Shown here in pieces: positions 1 through 11,910 of a stretch of DNA of 16,685 nucleotides (its first letter is position 1; every line of letters begins with the position of its first letter). The notes under the pieces were generated by a model. That model searched no databases and had not been told where the DNA came from. It saw only the letters and a program-made list of their open reading frames with translations. The position numbers and the translations under genes are program-made. The stretch lies in UHGV virus genome UHGV-0121436. One strand, written 5' to 3'. Origin of the DNA: a virus.

Positions 1-869
1 TGCGCCGCAAACGTATGGCGCAGAACGTGTGTCAGTTGACCGCGAGGGAGCACGATAGACGTTTTTTCCATCACGGATAAAAATTGAAAATAGCAGTCTG
101 TGAAGAAATTGAACCCATCGAGCGCCATGATCTCTTCGTAAAGCTCTTTACTGATAGGGATGCTTCTGTTTTTCTTCCCCTTCGTTCTGACAAAGGTAAT
201 TCGGTATTTGGTCACCTGTGAGCGGGTAAGGTTTATTGCTTCTCGCCAGCGTGCGCCTGTGCTTAAGCATATCTTGACTACCAGTGCCAGAATTGGGTCC
301 TGACGTTTGCAATCATCCAGCAGTTCAACAATCTGCTCATGGGTAAGCCATGCCATCTCTTTTTCTGCGATGGTGAATTTTCGCATGTTCTCCAGTGGGT
401 TTGGATACGACCATTCGCCCAGGCGGGATAGTTCGCTAAAAACACTACTTAGATAGCTTTGCTCCAGGTTAATGGTGACCGGGCTGGCCCCTTTCTTCCA
501 TTTCTCGCTGAAGTAGATCTCACCTGTCAGTCGTTTATCTCGATAATGGGCAAACATTTTAGATGTGAGATCGGTTGCAAGGGGATTGCCCAGAGCGTCA
601 ACCATCAGCAGCAATTTGTCATAGACATGCTGCCCAGCAGTCAGAGATTTACCATGTAGTTTGAACCATAGCTCAACCACGTCTTTCAGGGTTCGACGAT
701 CTACTGATTCGCCCAGCCAGGGCTTTGCTTCGGTTTCTTCCATCGTGTGACGCTCAAAAGCCAGTGCTTCGCCTTTGGTGGCGAATTGTTTACGCACACG
801 ACGCCCACTACGTCCGGCGGGGTAACATTCGCAAAGCCATTTTCCTGTGGTGAGTTTTCGTACTGCCAT
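1..869 (-). CDS. int: Tyrosine integrase, P2/186-like; 3' end lies beyond the window start (partial)
   Basis: Reverse-strand reading frame opens at ATG 869..867 and stays open to position 1 (about 289 codons), so the six-frame track did not report it. Translation begins MAVRKLTTGKWLCECYPAGRSGRRVRKQFATKGEALAFE and contains LSTGARWREA and HVLRHTFA, which match the conserved boxes of P2 Int as I recall them. GGAGG lies 9 nt upstream of the ATG. Confidence 0.85.
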   Translation of the reverse strand, partial: MAVRKLTTGKWLCECYPAGRSGRRVRKQFATKGEALAFERHTMEETEAKPWLGESVDRRTLKDVVELWFKLHGKSLTAGQHVYDKLLLMVDALGNPLATDLTSKMFAHYRDKRLTGEIYFSEKWKKGASPVTINLEQSYLSSVFSELSRLGEWSYPNPLENMRKFTIAEKEMAWLTHEQIVELLDDCKRQDPILALVVKICLSTGARWREAINLTRSQVTKYRITFVRTKGKKNRSIPISKELYEEIMALDGFNFFTDCYFQFLSVMEKTSIVLPRGQLTHVLRHTFAA

Positions 870-1030
870 AAAAAATGCCCTCCAATAGAGAGCATTTTTA
901 CTGTATGTATAACCAGTGTCAATGTATGAAATCTTGCGACCATACATCTCACTGAAGCCATAATGAAGTTGGCTATTTTTTGCTATGTGAGTATGTGACT
1001 TTTGCGGTTAGCCTGCGGCTCATTGTTATA

Positions 1031-1246
1031 TTAGGCGCAGATATAAAAGCAAAAATTATCGCGAGTTTTTAGTACAGATTTTTTTGATTTACTAATAGTT
1101 CCATCATTGCAAACGAACTTTCCATCGGAGGTACAGTGAGAGACACCTCCCTTTTTCCCAGAACAAGGATAATTTTTAGCATAGGTAGTTAGTGGGTTTA
1201 ATAACAAAGAGCATGATAAAACCACAAAAAATACCTTACCAAGCAT
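1031..1246 (-). CDS. Small secreted cysteine-containing protein (71 aa), unknown function; cargo between repressor and integrase
   Basis: ORF with strong RBS (GGGAGGAAACT) just upstream of ATG 1246. N-terminus [23 protein letters not shown] looks like a Sec signal peptide; the roughly 48-aa mature part has 5 Cys. AT-rich. It starts 16 nt downstream of the repressor stop, on the same strand. Confidence 0.5.
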
Positions 1247-1261
1247 AGTTTCCTCCCGGTA

Positions 1262-1831
1262 TTACCTAACGTACTTAATTGTTAAACTTATAATTTTTCC
1301 AATTATTTCAACATCTTCTATCTTGCACTCGAAGGATCTGTTTCCACCTTCAACGAAGATTCTTCCACCGGGTAAACGAGTAATGTCGCGGATTGTTATT
1401 TCGCCATCAATACTTATTACCCATTTACCATCACGTATATCATCAAATTCTTTATCACAAATAAATTCAGAATTGTTATCTGTGATGACAAAAGGTTTTT
1501 TAAACGTAGAGGGTAGAAATCCCTTATCAAAAATATAAAAACCGTCTTCACGCAAGGCACCATCAGATAATACATATTTAGCAACTTCCATCGTATTTGT
1601 ATTACCTGAAGTTTGCTTTGAACCATGTCCAGTTGTGAGCCAATTAAGCGAGGTGCCCGTTTCAAGGGCGCACTGGATTACCCATTCTGCTGGGAATGAG
1701 TCACGCATGTAGCGTGTGGCGAGTGTACTTTTAGAGATTCCTAAATGATCGCACAACGCCTGTCGAGTTTTGAATCCATAAGCTTCTACCATGCGCTCTA
1801 TAGCGCCTCGTCCGCCTTTCTCCAAATTCAT
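1262..1831 (-). CDS. cI: Phage immunity repressor (CI/C-like) with N-terminal HTH
   Basis: ORF on minus strand; ATG at 1831 preceded by GGAG at 5-nt spacing (the track's GTG at 1837 is an alternative start). N-terminal region ERMVEAYGFKTRQALCDHLGISKSTLATRYMRD is HTH-like and resembles the phage CI-repressor N-terminal domain. It is divergent from the early operon, as in P2/186. Confidence 0.8.
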   Translation of the reverse strand: MNLEKGGRGAIERMVEAYGFKTRQALCDHLGISKSTLATRYMRDSFPAEWVIQCALETGTSLNWLTTGHGSKQTSGNTNTMEVAKYVLSDGALREDGFYIFDKGFLPSTFKKPFVITDNNSEFICDKEFDDIRDGKWVISIDGEITIRDITRLPGGRIFVEGGNRSFECKIEDVEIIGKIISLTIKYVR

Positions 1832-1855
1832 GGTCACTCCAAGTGAACTTTTATC

Positions 1856-1884
1856 TTGACGATTTCATAGTGCGATCGTATGTT
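1856..1884 (+). promoter_or_regulatory. Candidate early lytic promoter (pR/Pe-like) in the repressor/early-operon switch region
   Basis: TTGACG (1856..1861), 17-nt spacer, TATGTT (1879..1884), located between the repressor start and the apl-like ORF and oriented rightward. Sequence pattern only. Confidence 0.35.
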
Positions 1885-1956
1885 TATGGTGTTCACAAAA
1901 TACAAACGATCCGTATTCGCCCTGATTAATCATCATTAAACGAGGAATGTTGCATC

Positions 1957-2115
1957 ATGAGACCTAACATTTCAATCACTCTTACCACGCCTCATGTGAC
2001 TATTGAACGCTATAGCGAGCTGACAGGGCTATCCATCGATACCATCAATGACATTTGGCTGATGGACGCCTTATCCGTCACCGTCTGCGCAAAGATAAAA
2101 AACGCGAAAAAGTGA
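1957..2115 (+). CDS. Apl/Cox-like small HTH protein (excisionase / repressor of lysogenic promoter), 52 aa as read; possibly frameshifted
   Basis: First ORF of the rightward operon: MRPNISITLTTPHVTIERYSELTGLSIDTINDIW..., with an HTH-like segment. Position matches P2 cox / 186 apl. Shorter than the roughly 87-91 aa I recall for those proteins; see the finding on a possible frame change. Confidence 0.5.
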   Translation: MRPNISITLTTPHVTIERYSELTGLSIDTINDIWLMDALSVTVCAKIKNAKK

Positions 2116-2209
2116 TGATCAACATAGCAGCCATGACCGTTGATGCGCTTTCAGAATGCAATCTAAACCTTAATTAGTTCGATTCTGAAATACATCAGAG
2201 GCATTGACC

Positions 2210-2719
2210 ATGTTTGATTACCAAGTTTCCAAACATCCACATTTTGATGAAGCCTGTCGTGCATTCGCATTGCGCCACAACCTGGTGCAACTGGCAGAAC
2301 GTGCTGGCATGAATGTGCAGATTCTGCGGAACAAGCTGAACCCAGCTCAGCCTCATTTATTAACCGCACCAGAAATCTGGCTGCTTACCGATCTGACTGA
2401 AGATTCAACGCTGGTAGATGGTTTTCTGGCACAGATTCACTGCCTGCCATGTGTACCGATTAATGAGGTGGCAAAAGAGAAACTGCCACATTACGTCATG
2501 AGTGCAACCGCAGAGATCGGGCGTGTTGCTGCAGGTGCGGTATCTGGCGATGTAAAAACCAGTGCAGGTCGTCGTGATGCTATCAGCAGCATTAACTCTG
2601 TAACACGACTGATGGCGCTGGCTGCTGTTTCATTGCAGGCCCGTTTACAGGCTAATCCTGCGATGGCGAGTGCAGTTGATACCGTGACTGGCCTCGGTGC
2701 TTCATTCGGTTTGCTGTGA
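2210..2719 (+). CDS. cII: CII-like lysogeny-establishment transcriptional activator (186 CII-like), 169 aa
   Basis: ATG 2210 with AGAGG 9 nt upstream. Translation [24 protein letters not shown]...[25 protein letters not shown] closely resembles what I recall of coliphage 186 CII (same length class, same N-terminal motif). Second gene of the early operon. Confidence 0.7.
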
Positions 2720-2927: not shown

Positions 2928-3232
2928 GCCCCGGTGAACGCCTGAATGGACTTAATCACATAGCGGAATTAAGGGCAAAAGTTTTTGGCCTGAATATTGA
3001 GTCAGAGCTTGAGCGGTTTATTAAAGATATGCGTGATCCTCGGGATATCAATAATGAACAAAATAAACGGGCACTGGCTGCCATATTCTTTATGGCAAAA
3101 ATTCCGGCTGAACGTCATAGCATCAGCATCAATGAGCTGACCACTGACGAAAAGCGGGAGTTGATTAAAGCAATGAATCATTTTCGTGCAGTGGTGAGCT
3201 TATTTCCCAGACGGCTAACCATGCCGAATTAA
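2891..3232 (+). CDS. Hypothetical early-operon protein (113 aa)
   Basis: ATG 2891 preceded by GGGGGAA; overlaps the previous ORF by 37 nt. No recognisable motif. Confidence 0.5.
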   Translation: MAIEGAAATVPLSPGERLNGLNHIAELRAKVFGLNIESELERFIKDMRDPRDINNEQNKRALAAIFFMAKIPAERHSISINELTTDEKRELIKAMNHFRAVVSLFPRRLTMPN

Positions 3233-3299
3233 CCAACTAATGAAATTAATGGCGTAAACCCGCCGGGCATCCCTTTATCTAAATTCAGGAGAATTGATT

Positions 3300-3533
3300 A
3301 TGCGTAATATTGAGATCCTCACGACTAAAACCGGATCGGATGATGCAGGGCTTAATATTTTACTGACAGTGGCTCGTCTGGAAGAACGCCGGGCAAGGGC
3401 TGAAGCAATGGCAGCTCGCCTTGATAGCCTGGCGTGTCATATCTCATCCCGTCAGCTAAACCACGTGGAAGCAGCAGAACTACTGCGTGTAACTGCTGAA
3501 GCAATCCAGAACGAAGCGCAGGAGATCCACTAA
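3300..3533 (+). CDS. Hypothetical early-operon protein (77 aa)
   Basis: ATG 3300 with AGGAG 8 nt upstream. Its stop TAA overlaps the start of the next gene (TAATG). Confidence 0.55.
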   Translation: MRNIEILTTKTGSDDAGLNILLTVARLEERRARAEAMAARLDSLACHISSRQLNHVEAAELLRVTAEAIQNEAQEIH

Positions 3534-3760: not shown

Positions 3761-4614
3761 GCACCATCCTGAAATGGGCGGGAAATAAAACCGCCATTAT
3801 GTCCGAACTGAAAAAACACCTTCCTGCTGGCCCGCGACTGGTTGAACCTTTCGCGGGTTCCTGTGCTGTGATGATGGAGACGGATTACCCCAGCTATCTG
3901 GTTGCGGATATTAATCCTGATTTAATCAACCTCTATAAAAAGGTTGCCGCTGATTGTGAATCGTTTATATCTCGCGCCAGAGTTTTATTTGAGATCGCAA
4001 ACAGGGAGGTGGCTTATTACAACATAAGGCAGGAGTTTAATTACTCCACTGAAATTACTGATTTCATGAAAGCGGTATATTTCCTGTATCTCAATCGTCA
4101 CGGTTACCGTGGTTTATGTCGCTATAACAAGAGCGGGCATTTCAACATTCCCTACGGTAATTATAAAAATCCGTATTTCCCTGAAAAAGAAATTCGCGCA
4201 TTTGCAGAAAAGGCCCAGCGAGCAACGTTTATCTGCGCCAGCTTTGATGAAACGCTGGCGATGTTGAAGGCGGGGGATGTGGTGTATTGCGATCCGCCGT
4301 ATGACGGTACGTTTTCCGGCTATCACACTGACGGCTTCACTGAAGATGACCAGTATCACCTGGCATCTGTTCTTGAACATCGGTCATCAGAAGGACATCC
4401 GGTCATTGTTTCTAACAGTGACACATCCCTGATCCGTTCGCTGTATCGCAATTTTACTCACCACTACATCAAGGCAAAACGCAGCATCGGTGTGGCAGCT
4501 GGCGAGGGTAAATCAGCAACAGAAATCATTGCTGTTTCCGGGCCGCGCTGCTGGGTGGGATTTGATTATTCGCGTGGCGTGGATAGTTCTGCCGTGTACG
4601 GAGTACGTGCATGA
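3757..4614 (+). CDS. dam: DNA adenine methyltransferase, D12 class (Dam-like, probably GATC-specific)
   Basis: ATG 3757 with GGAGG upstream; start overlaps the preceding stop (ATGA). Translation has [16 protein letters not shown] (SAM-binding motif I-like), [17 protein letters not shown] and the catalytic DPPY motif (VVYCDPPY). Strong resemblance throughout to E. coli Dam as I recall it. Confidence 0.85.
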
Positions 4615-7025
4615 GTCATGCCGATATGAACAACTGCTGCGGCTTTAACGAGGCTGCCGCAGCATTCTCATGGAACAGCCCGAAAAAGGCCATTAACCCT
4701 TATCTGGACCCGGCGGAAGTTGCGCCGGTTTCTACGCTTTCAAACCTGATCACTCTGTACGCTGCCGATAACGAGCAGGAACAACTGCGCCGCGAGGCAC
4801 TGAGTGATCAGGTCTGGGAGCGTTATTTCTTTAATGAATCACGTGATCCTGTCCAGCGCGAAATGGAGCAGGATAAGCTCATTAGCCGGGCAAAGCTGGC
4901 GCATGAGCAGCAGCGTTTTAATTCAGACATGGTCATTCTGGCGGACGTCAACGCCCAGCCTTCCCATATCAGCAAGCCGCTGATGCAACGTATTGAATAC
5001 TTCAGCAGCCTGGGCAGGCCAAAGGCTTATTCCCGCTATTTACGTGAGACGATTAAGCCATGTCTGGAACGACTGGAGCATGTACGCGACAGTCAGCTAT
5101 CTGCATCTTTTCGCTTTATGGCAAGCCATGAAGGGCTGGACGGCCTGCTGATCCTGCCTGAAATGAGTCAGGATCAGGTGAAACGCCTGTCCACCCTGGT
5201 AGCTGCGCATATGAGTATGTGCCTTGATGCAGCTTGTGGTGATTTGTATGCCACCGATGACGTTAAGCCAGAAGAAATCCGCAAGACATGGGAAAAGGTG
5301 GCAGCGGAAACCCTGCGTCTGGATGTCATCCCACCTGCGTTTGAGCAACTCCGTCGGAAAAGAAACCGCCGTAAACCCGTGCCCTATGAACTCATTCCGG
5401 GTTCGCTGGCGCGTATGTTGTGCGCCGACTGGTGGTATCGGAAATTATGGAAGATGCGTTGCGAATGGCGGGAAGAGCAGTTGCGCGCTGTTTGCCTGGT
5501 CAGCAAAAAAGCATCTCCTTATGTCAGCTATGAAGCCGTGATGCATAAACGTGAGCAGCGCCGTAAGTCGCTGGAGTTTTTCCGTTCTCATGAACTGGTG
5601 AACGAAGACGGCGACACGCTGGACATGGAGGATGTGGTAAACGCCAGCAGCAGCAACCCTGCGCATCGCCGCAATGAGATGATGGCCTGTGTTAAAGGTC
5701 TGGAGCTTATCGCGGAAATGCGCGGTGACTGCGCCGTTTTCTACACTATCACCTGTCCGTCGCGTTTCCATTCCACGCTAAATAACGGCAGGCCAAACCC
5801 GACCTGGACAAACGCGACGGTAAGACAAAGCAGCGATTATCTGGTCGGCATGTTTGCTGCATTTCGTAAGGCGATGCACAAAGCCGGGTTGCGCTGGTAT
5901 GGCGTGCGGGTGGCTGAGCCGCATCATGATGGCACAGTTCACTGGCACCTGTTGTGTTTCATGCGCAAAAAAGACCGCCGTGCCATCACTGCATTACTGC
6001 GTAAGTTTGCCATCCGTGAAGACCGCGAGGAGCTGGGCAATAACACTGGGCCGCGCTTTAAGTCTGAGTTGATTAACCCGCGCAAAGGAACGCCGACAAG
6101 CTACATCGCGAAATATATCAGTAAGAACATTGACGGTCGTGGTCTGGCTGGCGAGATCAGCAAGGAAACGGGTAAATCTCTGCGTGATAACGCTGAATAC
6201 GTGAATGCCTGGGCGTCTCTGCATCGTGTTCAGCAATTCCGCTTCTTTGGTATTCCGGGGCGTCAGGCTTACCGTGAACTTCGCTTGCTGGCTGGTCAGG
6301 CGGCAAGGCAGCAGGGTGACAAAAAAGCAGGTGTGCCGGTACTGGATAACCCGCGTCTTGATGCCATTCTGGCTGCTGCTGATGCTGGTTGTTTTGCCAC
6401 CTACATCATGAAGCAGGGCGGCGTACTGGTTCCCCGTAAATATCACCTCATCAGAACCGCTTATGAAATCAACGAAGAGCCGACCGCCTATGGCGATCAC
6501 GGCATTCGTATTTATGGCATCTGGTCACCCATTGCAGAGGGCAAGATCTGCACTCATGCAGTGAAGTGGAAAATGGTTCGTAAGGCCGTTGACGTTCAGG
6601 AGGCGGCAGCCGACCAGGGCGCTTGCGCCCCTTGGACTCGTGGCAATAACTGTCCCCTTGCTGAAAATTTGTACCAACAAGGGAAAGACAAATCAGCTGA
6701 TGGGGATACCAGAACGGATATCACCCGCATGGATGACAAGGAATTGCACGATTACCTGCACAGTATGAACAAAAAAGAGCGCCGGGAACTGGCTGCAAGG
6801 TTACGCCTGGTGAAACCGAAACGGCGTAGAGACTACAAACAGCGAATTACAGATCATCAGCGACAGCAGCTCGTCTATGAACTGAAGTCCAGAGGATTTG
6901 ATGGCAGCGAGAAAGAGGTCGATTTACTCCTTCGCGGCGGCAGCATTCCGTCAGGAGCAGGCCTGCGTATTTTCTATCGGAACCAGCGTTTGCAGGAAGA
7001 TGATAAGTGGCGGAACCTGTATTAA
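4611..7025 (+). CDS. A: Replication initiation protein A (rolling-circle nicking endonuclease, P2 gpA-like), 804 aa
   Basis: Large ORF whose start overlaps the dam stop. Contains a histidine-rich [11 protein letters not shown] segment (HUH-type metal site) and [12 protein letters not shown] (candidate catalytic Tyr region). Size and position match P2/186 gene A. Confidence 0.9.
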
Positions 7026-7898: not shown

Positions 7899-9476
7899 AT
7901 GGATATCAACTATGTTGTTTCAAAAATGGGGTTCGTAGATGATCTTATTAATGCAGGTTCATTTGATTCTGCCTATAAAAATGTAAAGGATATTCTTAAC
8001 GGTATCGATGAGATAAATACAATCAAAGAAAATAGAATAATTATATTATCTAATTTGGCCGGAAATCTTATTGATATCGGAAGTTTTAGTAATGTAAAAA
8101 ATATAGCGGAGGAAGGCTTAAATATCTTTATAAACAATAAAAATGAATTTCTGACTATAATGAAAGAATCCTTATATTACTATAACTTGGCAAATGGAAT
8201 GAGCGCAGTTCTTGATTTTAATCCTAATGACAATGCAGATATTGATAGTTTCATTAAGCTGAATGATGTAAAAAATAATTACTGGAAAGCGTTTAAACTT
8301 TCACAAGAAGATGGATGGGTGCCCCCTGATTTAATAGTTAATCTAGCTAATGTATTAAAAAAACAATATCGTATATCTGAATCAATGGATTATTATGAAC
8401 AAGCAATATCTATTGATAACTCAATTCCTCAGGCGTGGGTAAACAGATCTGAGGCATTAGAATTGCTTAATGAATTATCTACAACATATACATATAAAAT
8501 GATTAAAGAAGTTATTCGAGGTTATGAGTGTGCAATAAAGTCAGGGAAATGTTTTCCTTCATGGAAGGTTGCTCTTCAAAGAAAAATAAAGTACAACGAA
8601 AGTATATTGAGTGAATCATGTGTATATGGCATAGAGGATATAAGTACAGATGAAAGGCTCACGCAGGAGGAGTATGATACTTTATCAAACTACCAGAGGT
8701 TTTGTATAGATAATAATCTAATGTTGTCTGATCATTCGCTATATTGCAATTGTTATGCGTCATCTAAAGATAATATAACTATTGCTACCACCGAGGAAGG
8801 TGTGTTTGGTGATTTTATAGTGCCAATGGAAATGGTGTTAAATAGACTTAAAGCAGAGTATTCCTTAGCACGAAAAATGTTTTTTGAATATAAGGTTGAT
8901 AGTGAGTTTTTTGATGAGGATTCGGAGGTATGTTATTCTGAATTGTATAATGGAGAAATATTGTATGAAAATGTTGAGAAGTTAAGGGTTGCATTTAGAG
9001 CTTGCTTTGGTATCTTGGATAAAATAGCAGTTGCTCTGTGTCAATTATTTGATTTAAAACCAGATAGAGGACATATATACTTTCATAACTTCTGGCGGAT
9101 TAGTGATGAAAAAAGAAAGCTTAAAATAAACAAAATAAATAATAAAGGATTGCTGGGTTTGTTTAGTATTGCTATGGATTTGAATGATAAAAATGGTGAG
9201 CTTGCTTTTTTTAAAGAATGGAGGAATGATTTAGAACATAAACTGTTAGTTATTCACGAGAAAGACATGTTAGTTGATTTATATAATTCTTATGGATTTT
9301 TTGATGAGGTGAGATTTATTGAGAAAGAAAAGTTTGAGAAACAGCTCTTACAACTCATGAAAATTGTGAGATCAGCCGTTATTCTTTTTGTGTTTACCAT
9401 ACGTATAGAGGGGAAAAAAAGTATTCCTAAAGATATGTTGACCATTAAAAATACCATCGAGAGAAAAGTATTGTAG
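7899..9476 (+). CDS. AT-rich 525-aa protein with N-terminal TPR-like helical repeats and C-terminal HEPN-like region; candidate anti-phage / abortive-infection effector
   Basis: Uninterrupted ORF with AGAGGA RBS before ATG 7899. Visibly much lower GC than the flanking phage genes (by eye; not computed). TPR-like segment around YYEQAISIDNSIPQAWVNRSEALELLNEL. C-terminal R-x4-H (RNDLEH, nt 9222..9239) and R-x5-H (RGHIYFH) fit the HEPN R-x4-6-H signature. No Walker A motif seen. Located in the P2 tin/old-equivalent position. Confidence 0.75.
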   Translation: MDINYVVSKMGFVDDLINAGSFDSAYKNVKDILNGIDEINTIKENRIIILSNLAGNLIDIGSFSNVKNIAEEGLNIFINNKNEFLTIMKESLYYYNLANGMSAVLDFNPNDNADIDSFIKLNDVKNNYWKAFKLSQEDGWVPPDLIVNLANVLKKQYRISESMDYYEQAISIDNSIPQAWVNRSEALELLNELSTTYTYKMIKEVIRGYECAIKSGKCFPSWKVALQRKIKYNESILSESCVYGIEDISTDERLTQEEYDTLSNYQRFCIDNNLMLSDHSLYCNCYASSKDNITIATTEEGVFGDFIVPMEMVLNRLKAEYSLARKMFFEYKVDSEFFDEDSEVCYSELYNGEILYENVEKLRVAFRACFGILDKIAVALCQLFDLKPDRGHIYFHNFWRISDEKRKLKINKINNKGLLGLFSIAMDLNDKNGELAFFKEWRNDLEHKLLVIHEKDMLVDLYNSYGFFDEVRFIEKEKFEKQLLQLMKIVRSAVILFVFTIRIEGKKSIPKDMLTIKNTIERKVL

Positions 9477-9817: not shown

Positions 9818-10030
9818 CGCGCGCAAAGGGGTTAAATGGCAAAAATCCGGCGCAATCTTCTGCTCGCTGTCGGCTTTAATTGGTGAGGGGGAGGGAATAG
9901 GCGCAAAAAAGAAATGCCCCGCAGAATGCGATCTATACACGCAGAATCGCGGATAACTCTTAAGCTATGATTGACGTACAATTTTACAGGAAGTATTAAA
10001 GTCTCATGTTCATTTTTTCAGGATGATGAC

Positions 10031-10807
10031 ATGTTAGCTGGTACGCGAAGTGCGACGAACGGAAAGGTTTTTGCTAAAGACTGCGAAAAAGAAGAAGGGC
10101 CATTTTTTTGCATTGGATGCAAAAAAGAATTGGTTTTAAAGAAGGGGCGAATTAAAGTTCATCACTTCGCCCATAAGCCCCCGTTTTCTTGCAACAGAGG
10201 TCATGGGGAGACTGAAAAACACCGAGAATGCAAAGAATCTATGTATAACTTGTTGCTTTCAATGCCGAATGTTAGAGATGTTGACATAGAGCATGATCTT
10301 GGTAGTGCTGTAGCTGATGTGTATGCTGTGATAAACAATGTTCCAGTCGCTATTGAAGTACAACGCAGCATTCTTTCCGTAAATGAAATAACAAGACGCA
10401 CCAAAGAATATCATCGTTTAGGTGTACATGTGCTTTGGCTTTCACTGTTCAGCACGCGACTTGTAGAAGATCGCTTTAGCCCATCAGCGTGGGAAAAGTG
10501 GTGTCATGCTACCTATTATGGCAGGGTATATTATTGGCTTTCTGGATTGGATGTGATCCCATATCATTTTTCTGACTATAAATTATATGTTGAAGAAAGT
10601 ACATGGTACGAGTCGGGTGGAAATGAGAGAAGCGCAGGTGGATACTATAAATTTTCAAAACGTTATAAAACGCCACTCGCTGGGCAAAGAGTAAATATAG
10701 CGGAAGACTTTTCGCCTAAAAGAAAAGCAGCATGGAATAGTAAGACTATTTATATACCAGAATGTAGTATTTATTTGGATGGACAGTCAGCGTGGTGGAG
10801 TAAATAA
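10031..10807 (+). CDS. CoiA-like protein (putative PD-(D/E)xK-type nuclease with N-terminal Cys/His cluster), 258 aa
   Basis: ATG 10031 (the track's TTG at 9971 is less likely). Translation has CIGCKKELVLKKGRIKVHHFAHKPPFSC, GETEKHRECKE, ADVYAVINNVPVAIEVQRSILSVNEITRRTKEYHRLGVHVLWL. This order of motifs (C-x2-C...HFAH...GE-x3-H...ADV...AIE-x-Q-x-S...LG-x-VLW) is what I recall for the competence protein CoiA family. Moderately AT-rich; lies between cos and the portal gene. Confidence 0.7.
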   Translation: MLAGTRSATNGKVFAKDCEKEEGPFFCIGCKKELVLKKGRIKVHHFAHKPPFSCNRGHGETEKHRECKESMYNLLLSMPNVRDVDIEHDLGSAVADVYAVINNVPVAIEVQRSILSVNEITRRTKEYHRLGVHVLWLSLFSTRLVEDRFSPSAWEKWCHATYYGRVYYWLSGLDVIPYHFSDYKLYVEESTWYESGGNERSAGGYYKFSKRYKTPLAGQRVNIAEDFSPKRKAAWNSKTIYIPECSIYLDGQSAWWSK

Positions 10808-10814
10808 GAATTGT

Positions 10815-10858
10815 TAATATAAATTCAGCAGCAATTGCTGCTGCATTTATTATATTAA
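10815..10858. terminator. Bidirectional intrinsic terminator between the convergent CoiA-like and portal genes
   Basis: Perfect 18-nt palindrome CAGCAGCAATTGCTGCTG (10826..10843) flanked by A/T-rich runs on both sides. It sits exactly between the stop of the plus-strand ORF (10807) and the stop of the minus-strand portal gene (10855). Confidence 0.55.
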
Positions 10859-11910
10859 CCGTTGTGCTTGTCTTCTGTCAGTCCCAGCGTGTACGGTTCA
10901 AAGCGGATCACTTCTTCGCCCAGCCACTCGTTAAGCTCCTGTAGTCGCTTCTGCAGCGGCATCAGCTCGTTGCGGACAAAGACGCGGCTGGCCTTTTCTA
11001 CATCACCAAAGCCGCCGGTATTGTTGGGAATAATGCCCATCATTTGTGGTGGCACGCGGTGTGCTGCCATCATGTCATCGCGGCTGACATTTTTGATATT
11101 CAGAAATTCATCCTTCGCCGCAACTTCTGACAGAGGAATGATCTGAAGCCCGTCCTTTTTGCCGTTAGGCGAGTACATAAACAGATTGCGGAAGTTGCCA
11201 GGGCCTTTGGCGCTTTTCATCGCATTGCGGAGGTTGTTCACATCCTCCTGGTTTTGCGCGGCATCGGTCATGTACATGATAAAGCCCGCATGACTGCCGT
11301 TAATGTAATATTTGCGTCGGAACAGCGTGGCGGACTCGTTGAGCAGGGCTGACGGAATGGCAGAAAGATAACCGGGCAGGCCGTAAATCTCCTGGTTGAT
11401 ATCCGGTTCCATCAGATGAAAAATGCTGCCTTTCGTGAACTGATACGGCTGGGTTGTCATACCGTATTGCACAAACCAGTAGGTATCCAGGTCTAACCCG
11501 CGTCGGGTGTATTTTGCCAGCGCAGGCTCAAGGGCGATAACTTCACCGAAGCGGTTCGTGCGTTTCTCCAGGTAGGCGTTACCAAATACCAGGTAGTCCT
11601 GCACAAAACGTGAAAAAGCCTGCTGGCTGAGCAGCGGGTGAGGGATATAGGTACTGGTCAGAATGTTGCACTTTACTGCAATCGGGGAACTGTGATGCAC
11701 GGCAGCGCGGAAGGTGCGCGCCAGTCCGTCAAAGCTGACGGGCGGCTCATACCAACGGTCCATCTGTACGCATTCCACATAGTCCAGTAATTCTCGGCGG
11801 TCCAGAACAGGAACGGGATCGCCGAAGCTGAATGCTTCGGCTGTAGTTTGACTTTTAAGCTGGATCTGATTCGTCGCCGCAGCGCGGTTCTTCTTACTCT
11901 TTCCCATCAA
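10855..11910 (-). CDS. Q: Portal protein (P2 gpQ-like), 351 aa
   Basis: Minus-strand ORF starting MMGKSKKNRAAATNQ...; size, position next to cos and adjacency to the terminase ATPase gene match P2 Q. Its start overlaps the stop of gene P (ATGA). Confidence 0.88.
   Translation of the reverse strand: MMGKSKKNRAAATNQIQLKSQTTAEAFSFGDPVPVLDRRELLDYVECVQMDRWYEPPVSFDGLARTFRAAVHHSSPIAVKCNILTSTYIPHPLLSQQAFSRFVQDYLVFGNAYLEKRTNRFGEVIALEPALAKYTRRGLDLDTYWFVQYGMTTQPYQFTKGSIFHLMEPDINQEIYGLPGYLSAIPSALLNESATLFRRKYYINGSHAGFIMYMTDAAQNQEDVNNLRNAMKSAKGPGNFRNLFMYSPNGKKDGLQIIPLSEVAAKDEFLNIKNVSRDDMMAAHRVPPQMMGIIPNNTGGFGDVEKASRVFVRNELMPLQKRLQELNEWLGEEVIRFEPYTLGLTEDKHNG

Follow-up and report, generated by a model that had tools for sequence, protein, structure and literature searches.

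The gene sie2009 of lactococcal phages lies between the repressor and integrase genes. Its product and Ltp of Streptococcus thermophilus TP-J34 are small, envelope-located proteins that block DNA injection, and both are encoded in the lysogeny module and expressed from the prophage (PMC3952083). The PL lysogenic operon of the Vibrio phage K139 (Peduoviridae) has glo between cI and int (order cI-orf2-glo-int); Glo is annotated as 'periplasmic protein; involved in phage exclusion' and described as a soluble periplasmic protein with a signal peptide (PMC3952083, citing Nesper 1999). On the chromosome of Escherichia coli K-12, next to rydC, ydcA (b1419) encodes a 57-amino-acid (aa) protein said to carry a signal sequence and to be periplasmic (bioRxiv 10.1101/2024.02.12.579971). 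Here we describe a 71-aa open reading frame (ORF), hereafter ydcA, at positions 1031-1246 of UHGV virus genome UHGV-0121436, a stretch of 16,685 nucleotides (nt; hereafter the window) that is a 186-like Peduoviridae prophage of E. coli. The ORF lies between cI and int and is almost certainly a member of the YdcA family. The account we favour as a whole, with confidence evenly divided for and against it, is that of a prophage ydcA in the pL operon whose exported product would have an exclusion-type role.

Each of these systems resembles the window gene in part. E. coli K-12 YdcA shares a signal peptide followed by the pattern PCSGxKGGxxHC...FxCxDGxxSxSKxxC with its four cysteines; it is chromosomal, whereas the window copy is prophage-borne, coupled to cI, frameshifted and without the fourth cysteine. 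Glo shares the slot between cI and int and, by this analogy, is the best functional analogue of the exclusion idea, but is 137 aa long and has no four-cysteine basic mini-domain; homology was rejected (hhalign probability 2.7%, with only the signal peptides aligning). Sie2009 and Ltp, encoded like ydcA in a lysogeny module, differ in that they belong to Gram-positive hosts, are anchored by a membrane helix or lipid and have no sequence relationship with the window protein. The window gene is not an orphan: it belongs to an annotated family whose founding member is the chromosomal K-12 gene, and what is new is another member of that family in a known type of locus, not a new kind of gene.

Family, export signal and conserved core

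The ORF and its parts, in window coordinates, are:

1031-1246, minus strand: ydcA-like ORF, 71 aa, ATG start; codons 1-56 match the common 63-aa allele and codons 57-71 are out-of-frame read-through
1178-1246, minus strand: predicted Sec (signal peptidase I) signal peptide, codons 1-23, from hydropathy and the -3/-1 rule
1079-1168, minus strand: conserved YdcA core in frame, P27-K56, with three of the four invariant cysteines
1079-1085, no strand assigned: T7 run (A7 on the coding strand), T8 in related prophages; the frame shifts after K56
1056-1246, minus strand: extent of the intact 63-aa allele (WP_001321204.1) with the base restored; its coding sequence (CDS) lies at 3207-3398 in locus L001 and at 2556-2747 in locus L005

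The ORF scored 107.6 bits against NCBIfam NF007463 (PRK10040.1-2), above the curated cut-off of 93 (E = 1.9e-31), which places it in the YdcA family, and matched phrog_6000 at E = 1.3e-31. Its exact 71-aa sequence is already in RefSeq (WP_097298247.1), and PF27300 'YdcA' is recorded for it in a public collection; a search of Pfam-A gave no match even at E <= 10 because PF27300 is newer than the copy searched. Homologous CDS are named 'YdcA family protein' or 'hypothetical protein' in RefSeq, the intact allele bearing the former name. A scan of 1.84 billion representatives returned 460 matching clusters, and the chromosomal E. coli protein has the same core.

Searches of phage collections were less productive. 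Of 50,697 phage records searched by megablast with the region, Klebsiella phages alone gave a match, 78 nt long and upstream of int, so the immunity module of the window is absent from all isolated phage records searched. No enterobacterial phage was recovered by tblastn of the ORF against phages, which returned only Moraxella, Acinetobacter, Haemophilus and Pseudomonas phages; a scan of IMG/VR yielded only near-identical E. coli prophage copies and no new diversity, and Rfam gave nothing at E <= 1 over window 700-2300. Two other resemblances were not significant and were set aside. The lpg1681 family (NF052673) scored 13.2 bits (E = 0.087), far below its cut-off of 95, and the match to Potato type II (Pin-II) proteinase inhibitors (PDB E = 0.06-1) is probably noise from the cysteine pattern. 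The largest 'neighbour' cluster in a clustering of neighbouring genes was the YdcA gene itself and was discarded.

The first-pass annotation, made from the sequence alone, described an ORF with a signal peptide and a small cysteine-containing mature domain, and these elements hold up: the ORF is real, on the minus strand at exactly 1031-1246 with an ATG start, and C28, C38 and C46 of the family core are present. Judged by a rule of thumb (hydropathy and the residues at -3 and -1), its N terminus has the hallmarks of a Sec signal, with K4 in the n-region, an 11-residue hydrophobic core (Kyte-Doolittle 9-residue means of 1.9-2.7) and a predicted cleavage site between T-Y-A23 and the following K, the alanine at -1 being invariant in 33/33 homologues; AlphaFold2 places a helix at residues 3-15. 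Very probably the precursor leaves the cytoplasm through Sec, and signal peptidase I cleaves it after A23. For the intact allele, the predicted mature peptide has 40 aa, a mass of 4.27 kDa, an isoelectric point of 9.6, nine K/R and four cysteines. K32 and K55 are invariant in the family alignment.

Conservation is concentrated in the core. Between alleles, P27-C58 is 74-97% identical versus 15-40% for the signal peptides; in distant allele pairs, the CI proteins encoded alongside share 29-38% identity. Over 25 core codons, 14 synonymous and 2 non-synonymous changes separate the window from the E. coli 61-aa allele, and 14 synonymous and 1 non-synonymous separate it from the Yersinia allele; the Klebsiella comparison was disregarded because its pattern match fell within the signal peptide. 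Judged by these codon comparisons, the core is under strong purifying selection.

Operon position and cargo of the cI-int interval

The features flanking ydcA in the window are:

1262-1837, minus strand: 186-type CI repressor (Pfam Phage_CI_repr 2.8e-33, Phage_CI_C 1.1e-28)
1247-1261, minus strand: cI-ydcA spacer of 15 nt, with a Shine-Dalgarno GGAGG at 1252-1256, 5 nt ahead of the ATG at 1246-1244, by direct reading
894-922, minus strand: promoter-like TTGACA-17-AAAAAT upstream of int, a consensus match only
871-899, minus strand: terminator-like stem-loop and U-run with a 13-bp stem, ending 1 nt before the int start codon
3-869, minus strand: tyrosine integrase truncated at the window edge, N-terminal 289 aa (Pfam Int_N 1.7e-32, Phage_integrase)

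The Pfam assignments bear out the earlier placement of the gene between a repressor and int, with a 186-type CI upstream and a tyrosine integrase downstream, and the strong ribosome-binding site proposed for it corresponds to the GGAGG element. The cI gene ends with TAA at 1264-1262 and begins at GTG 1837 according to the ORF tool or at ATG 1831 in RefSeq homologues, the latter giving 189 aa. A scan for terminators between cI and the ydcA ORF found no terminator-like site. Because the gap is 15 nt, a Shine-Dalgarno sequence is present and no terminator follows cI, ydcA is probably the second cistron of the lysogenic (pL) operon, after cI. An Apl-like gene and a CII (CP76) gene lie on the far side of the switch from cI.

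The AT-richness emphasized at first pass stands for the ORF (34.7% GC, versus 48.5% for the whole window) but is not peculiar to it, as the low-GC tract (~900-1600, 32-38%) runs from the spacer between int and ydcA through ydcA into cI, where it takes in the C-terminal half. The two halves of cI differ accordingly, at 32.6% GC for the C-terminal half and 46.5% for the N-terminal half. This composition suggests a recombination joint inside cI, with the CI C-terminal domain co-transferred with ydcA, and the two may travel together.

The boundary with int is structured. Positions 870-1060 on the minus strand (191 nt) fold at -51.5 kcal/mol (z = -4.33), more stably than all 200 shuffles, and the int Shine-Dalgarno GGAGG is buried in the 3' arm of the 871-899 hairpin. 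Six phages whose cI-int cargo differs retain this hairpin with altered stem sequences, and the -35 region of the promoter-like site is conserved in six related phages. On this comparison the hairpin is the right-hand edge of the cargo slot. The 871-922 structure may be a terminator or a translational operator that separates int from cI-ydcA; given the conserved hairpin and promoter-like site, cI-ydcA transcripts may stop before int, which would then be under its own control.

Phages 186 and Fels-2 have cI directly adjoining int, without an intervening gene, in agreement with the first-pass view that the gene had been inserted at this position. Homologues in related prophages, which that annotation proposed to look for, were found behind cI: ydcA is the next gene for both E. 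coli alleles (63 and 61 aa), in Klebsiella and Yersinia prophages and in Haemophilus phage HP2, and in the enterobacterial prophages it comes directly after cI even where a KAP NTPase separates it from int. The HP2 copy (NC_003315, 2920-3102, plus strand; locus L002) is an unannotated 60-aa YdcA ORF whose ATG overlaps the cI stop and which precedes orf1(S); a similar unannotated YdcA-family ORF occurs in Acinetobacter phage Ab11510-phi (2920-3105 in locus L004). Other occupants of the slot are a DUF2511 protein (PSP3), a 349-aa protein (4LV2017), a 558-aa ATPase (KP12) and orf2 plus glo (K139). Judged by these gene orders, phages of this family use the interval between cI and int as a slot for variable cargo. 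The KAP NTPase, a 443-aa protein encoded between ydcA and int at 4198-5529 in loci L017 and L020, from E. coli and Klebsiella prophages, matches the PADLOC candidate system PDC-S20 (E = 1.3e-171), and the slot therefore carries defence candidates besides ydcA.

Genomic context was surveyed in 80 species-level loci. A 186-type CI lies within the flank in seven of these, directly upstream in six, and in the seventh, from Atlantibacter, the gene lies after int. In eight further loci, all betaproteobacterial, an upstream gene on the same strand encodes an XRE or S24 repressor. An Ogr/Delta-like zinc-finger protein is encoded nearby in five loci, four of them among these eight. Apparently, to go by these arrangements, the gene has been placed repeatedly and independently directly behind two types of phage repressor.

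Other variable genes lie elsewhere in the window. Between the replication and portal genes, 7899-9476 (plus strand) encodes a 525-aa HEPN_LA2681 protein (1.8e-38); 9971-10807 (plus strand) encodes a 278-aa protein with a CoiA-like nuclease domain (CoiA_N 6.3e-12, CoiA_nuc 2e-10), and 9825-10896 does not align to the closest prophage. From their domains, the HEPN_LA2681 and CoiA-like genes are likely defence cargo. The variable region between replication and portal genes is presumably the P2 old/tin hotspot.

The frameshift in the window copy

The ORF called at first pass as a 71-aa mini-protein is a genuine gene, but its length is peculiar to an allele with a 1-nt deletion. Indels were called by alignment with two closely related prophages, and only two occur in 15.6 kb, one in the ydcA T run (1079-1085) and the other at position 2055. 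The base missing from the T8 run shifts the frame after K56, so that C58 is lost and the C terminus is replaced. C58 is invariant in 35/35 aligned homologues. Whereas the common 63-aa allele has all four invariant cysteines, the window allele keeps C28, C38 and C46 and, with those of its new tail, has five cysteines in the mature part, an odd number.

The second indel falls in the Apl-like excisionase/switch gene (1957-2177, plus strand), where a 1-nt deletion at about 2055 turns CATGTTGG into CATTTGG; the protein has 73 aa in related prophages and is here split into ORFs of 52 and 40 aa. Together, the ydcA and apl frameshifts suggest a decaying or locked-in prophage.

The 71-aa form is rare. 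The gene is found in 632 of 5,426 complete E. coli genomes, 1,350 of which carry related prophage DNA, and its usual allele has 63 aa. The best match among the 632 is 99.6% identical with one gap, which means that the T7 form is in none of them; the query is one base shorter than the matching stretch in this best hit and in each of the 29 others listed, from evenly spaced complete genomes. The intact allele is carried by, for example, E. coli ATCC 8739 and HS. The cluster representative of 63 aa is on at least 1,000 contigs, and the two 71-aa forms among those listed are on 8 and 14. In a separate look-up, the exact 71-aa sequence was on 18 contigs, including Illumina-based assemblies with intact apl. 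Because the exact protein recurs in independent assemblies, we regard it as a real but rare allele, and a sequencing error in the window copy, which was considered, is not favoured. The allele probably arose by slippage.

These data bear on one alternative account, that the window copy is a pseudogene in a decaying, locked-in prophage and that its frameshifted product misfolds and is non-functional. The loss of an invariant cysteine, the odd cysteine count, the second deletion, by which the Apl-like protein is shortened to 52 aa instead of 73, the absence of the T7 form from the complete genomes with the gene and the rarity of the 71-aa forms on contigs all favour this alternative. Two observations count against it. 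The exact allele, far from being a single error, persists in independent assemblies, Illumina-based ones among them, that have an intact apl, and the A7 run on the mRNA is, by inspection, an A_AAA_AAA slippery heptamer, on which a -1 slip, ribosomal or transcriptional, would restore the normal tail. The window copy is probably impaired unless such a slip occurs, and we consider its being a pseudogene a serious prospect that falls just short of an even chance. A pseudogene here can be compatible with either an exclusion or an envelope-fitness role of the intact gene.

Candidate roles of the YdcA domain

The only putative relative in the PDB is Dis2 (Lpg0823, PDB 7MUC chain AN) of the Legionella Dot/Icm outer-membrane cap. 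Dis2 was the top PDB match by phmmer, both for the full protein (3.2e-5) and for the mature part alone (2.2e-4), was also first with the YdcA family profile (1.9e-4) and was the top Foldseek match (probability 0.96, 38% identity); the AlphaFold2 model had a mean predicted local distance difference test (pLDDT) score of 76.6, rising to 88-90 over residues 30-50. In two published accounts, Dis2 is described as having two similar lobes pinned by five disulfides, lying near the outer membrane and lacking structural relatives (PMC8486379, PMC12716638); the latter also reports that it touches DotK, DotC and DotD there, is dispensable for Dot/Icm assembly and function, and is treated as Legionella-specific. 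Each lobe aligns to the YdcA core (CCSKMGGINYC...LVCNNG and GGV...VVCNDGYVS), and Dis2 looks like a YdcA-like domain duplicated in tandem; a keyword search of the same two papers found no statement of this link. Dis2 would share with the window protein a place in the periplasm, where it adjoins the outer membrane, but it belongs to a secretion machine, as a subunit of 124 aa with two lobes and five disulfides, whereas the window is a P2/186-like prophage without type IV secretion system genes.

Nucleases recur among the partners of the domain. Among the representatives of the best 149 of the 460 clusters, 6 have a nuclease domain on the C-terminal side of YdcA: three have Endonuclease_NS, two SNase and one PLDc_2. 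In 5 alphaproteobacterial loci (L035, L038, L040, L078 and L095; three from Brucella, one from Shinella and one from an unclassified metagenome-assembled genome), a YdcA gene lies 49-212 nt upstream of a secreted SNase-type gene, and these gene pairs mirror the YdcA-SNase fusion proteins (P0104). Tandem YdcA repeats also occur, as does a second, PBCV_basic_adap-like cysteine motif.

In the mechanism that we propose for an exclusion-type role, ydcA would be co-transcribed with cI in lysogens, the terminator-like hairpin splitting off int. From the intact allele, a basic peptide of 40 aa would be released in the periplasm after A23, and its four invariant cysteines would form two disulfides there, giving a small domain that resembles one lobe of Dis2. 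This lysogen-expressed envelope factor would act in the periplasm or at the outer membrane, where it would hinder incoming phage or foreign DNA, or its delivery machinery, as a superinfection-exclusion or defence-type moron like K139 Glo. Glo, in the same slot, provides a direct precedent for superinfection exclusion, and the defence-candidate KAP NTPase next door, the repeated capture behind two repressor types and the links to nucleases by fusion and adjacency all argue for it. An exclusion or defence role, by analogy, is nevertheless put forward tentatively.

Several points weigh against such a role. No function of any YdcA-family protein, exclusion included, has been shown by any experiment, and neither the 63-aa nor the 71-aa allele matched a PADLOC-DB 2.0 family at E <= 0.01. 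The only phenotypes reported for E. coli ydcA are sensitivity of the deletion to 300 mM 3-hydroxypropionate (3-HP) and induction at pH 5 through YdcI (PMC7642389), which suggest a part in envelope or stress physiology more than in defence against phages. From host to host the core hardly varies, and a conserved host target fits this better than a phage arms race. The family is mainly chromosomal, with a phage repressor upstream in only 15 of the 80 loci (about 80% without); in Moraxella phages the gene is beside tail genes and in Acinetobacter phages among hypothetical genes, in both outside any annotated lysogeny module. Finally, the window copy is itself frameshifted, like apl in the same, perhaps decaying, prophage.

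Some of these points favour a benefit to the host instead. Here ydcA would be a lysogenic-conversion moron with a periplasmic envelope or stress function like that of chromosomal YdcA, for instance in acid or organic-acid tolerance. Its core is nearly identical to that of the chromosomal E. coli protein (PCSGSKGGISHC...FVCNDGSISASKKTC), most family members lie outside prophages, the 3-HP and pH 5 phenotypes are of this kind, and a core so extremely conserved from host to host suggests that its target in the cell is conserved too. However, with ydcA already on the E. coli chromosome, the presence of a second copy calls for an explanation; the placement behind phage repressors of two different types and the adjoining defence candidates fit a fitness function poorly, and the 3-HP phenotype has had no mechanistic follow-up. 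A host-fitness role is possible, but we think it rather improbable.

It is somewhat less likely still that in the prophage the domain is an accessory piece rather than a defence effector, a periplasmic module that binds DNA or anchors to the envelope, with polyanions (DNA, lipid head groups or peptidoglycan) or outer-membrane lipoprotein assemblies as partners, in the manner of Dis2 with DotC, DotD and DotK. The strongly basic character with invariant K32 and K55, the fusion or adjacency to three unrelated secreted nuclease families, the tandem repeats and PBCV_basic_adap-like second domains, and the contacts of Dis2 with DotK, DotC and DotD near the outer membrane (PMC12716638) are consistent with this. 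Binding, however, is proposed from sequence, the nuclease fusions amount to just 6/149 representatives, and the dispensability of Dis2 (PMC12716638) means that the structural precedent says little; such a module would also overlap with, and be compatible with, an exclusion-type role. A chance ORF in an AT-rich spacer, or a Cor/Llp/Ltp-type lipoprotein, is highly improbable: the ORF is short and AT-rich and V-L-S before Cys12 loosely resembles a lipobox, but a family hidden Markov model score above the curated cut-off, 460 clusters and overwhelmingly synonymous substitutions refute chance, and a leader of only 11 residues before Cys12, Leu at -2, a cysteine that is not conserved and the conserved A-x-A site at residue 23 count against a lipoprotein.

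A broader proposal, which we advance as speculative and doubtful, would embrace these associations. The YdcA domain would act in the periplasm of many bacteria, on its outer-membrane side, as a module directed at DNA or DNA-transport machinery, and would have been captured by several phage lineages (186-like, HP1-like, betaproteobacterial P2-like, Moraxella and Acinetobacter phages). In P2-like prophages it would be soluble, encoded right behind the repressor, and would serve to block superinfection or DNA entry; elsewhere it would guide secreted nucleases to their substrate, and in Dis2 it would form the two lobes.

At present the prophage ydcA is a well-supported annotation with an interesting context, and its copy in the window is probably damaged. 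About one in nine complete E. coli genomes carries the prophage gene, directly behind a prophage repressor. If an exclusion or defence role is true, it would provide an entire family of very small periplasmic proteins with a function, make the cI-int interval of 186-like phages a further hotspot for cargo or defence genes, and suggest a role for the Dot/Icm subunit Dis2.

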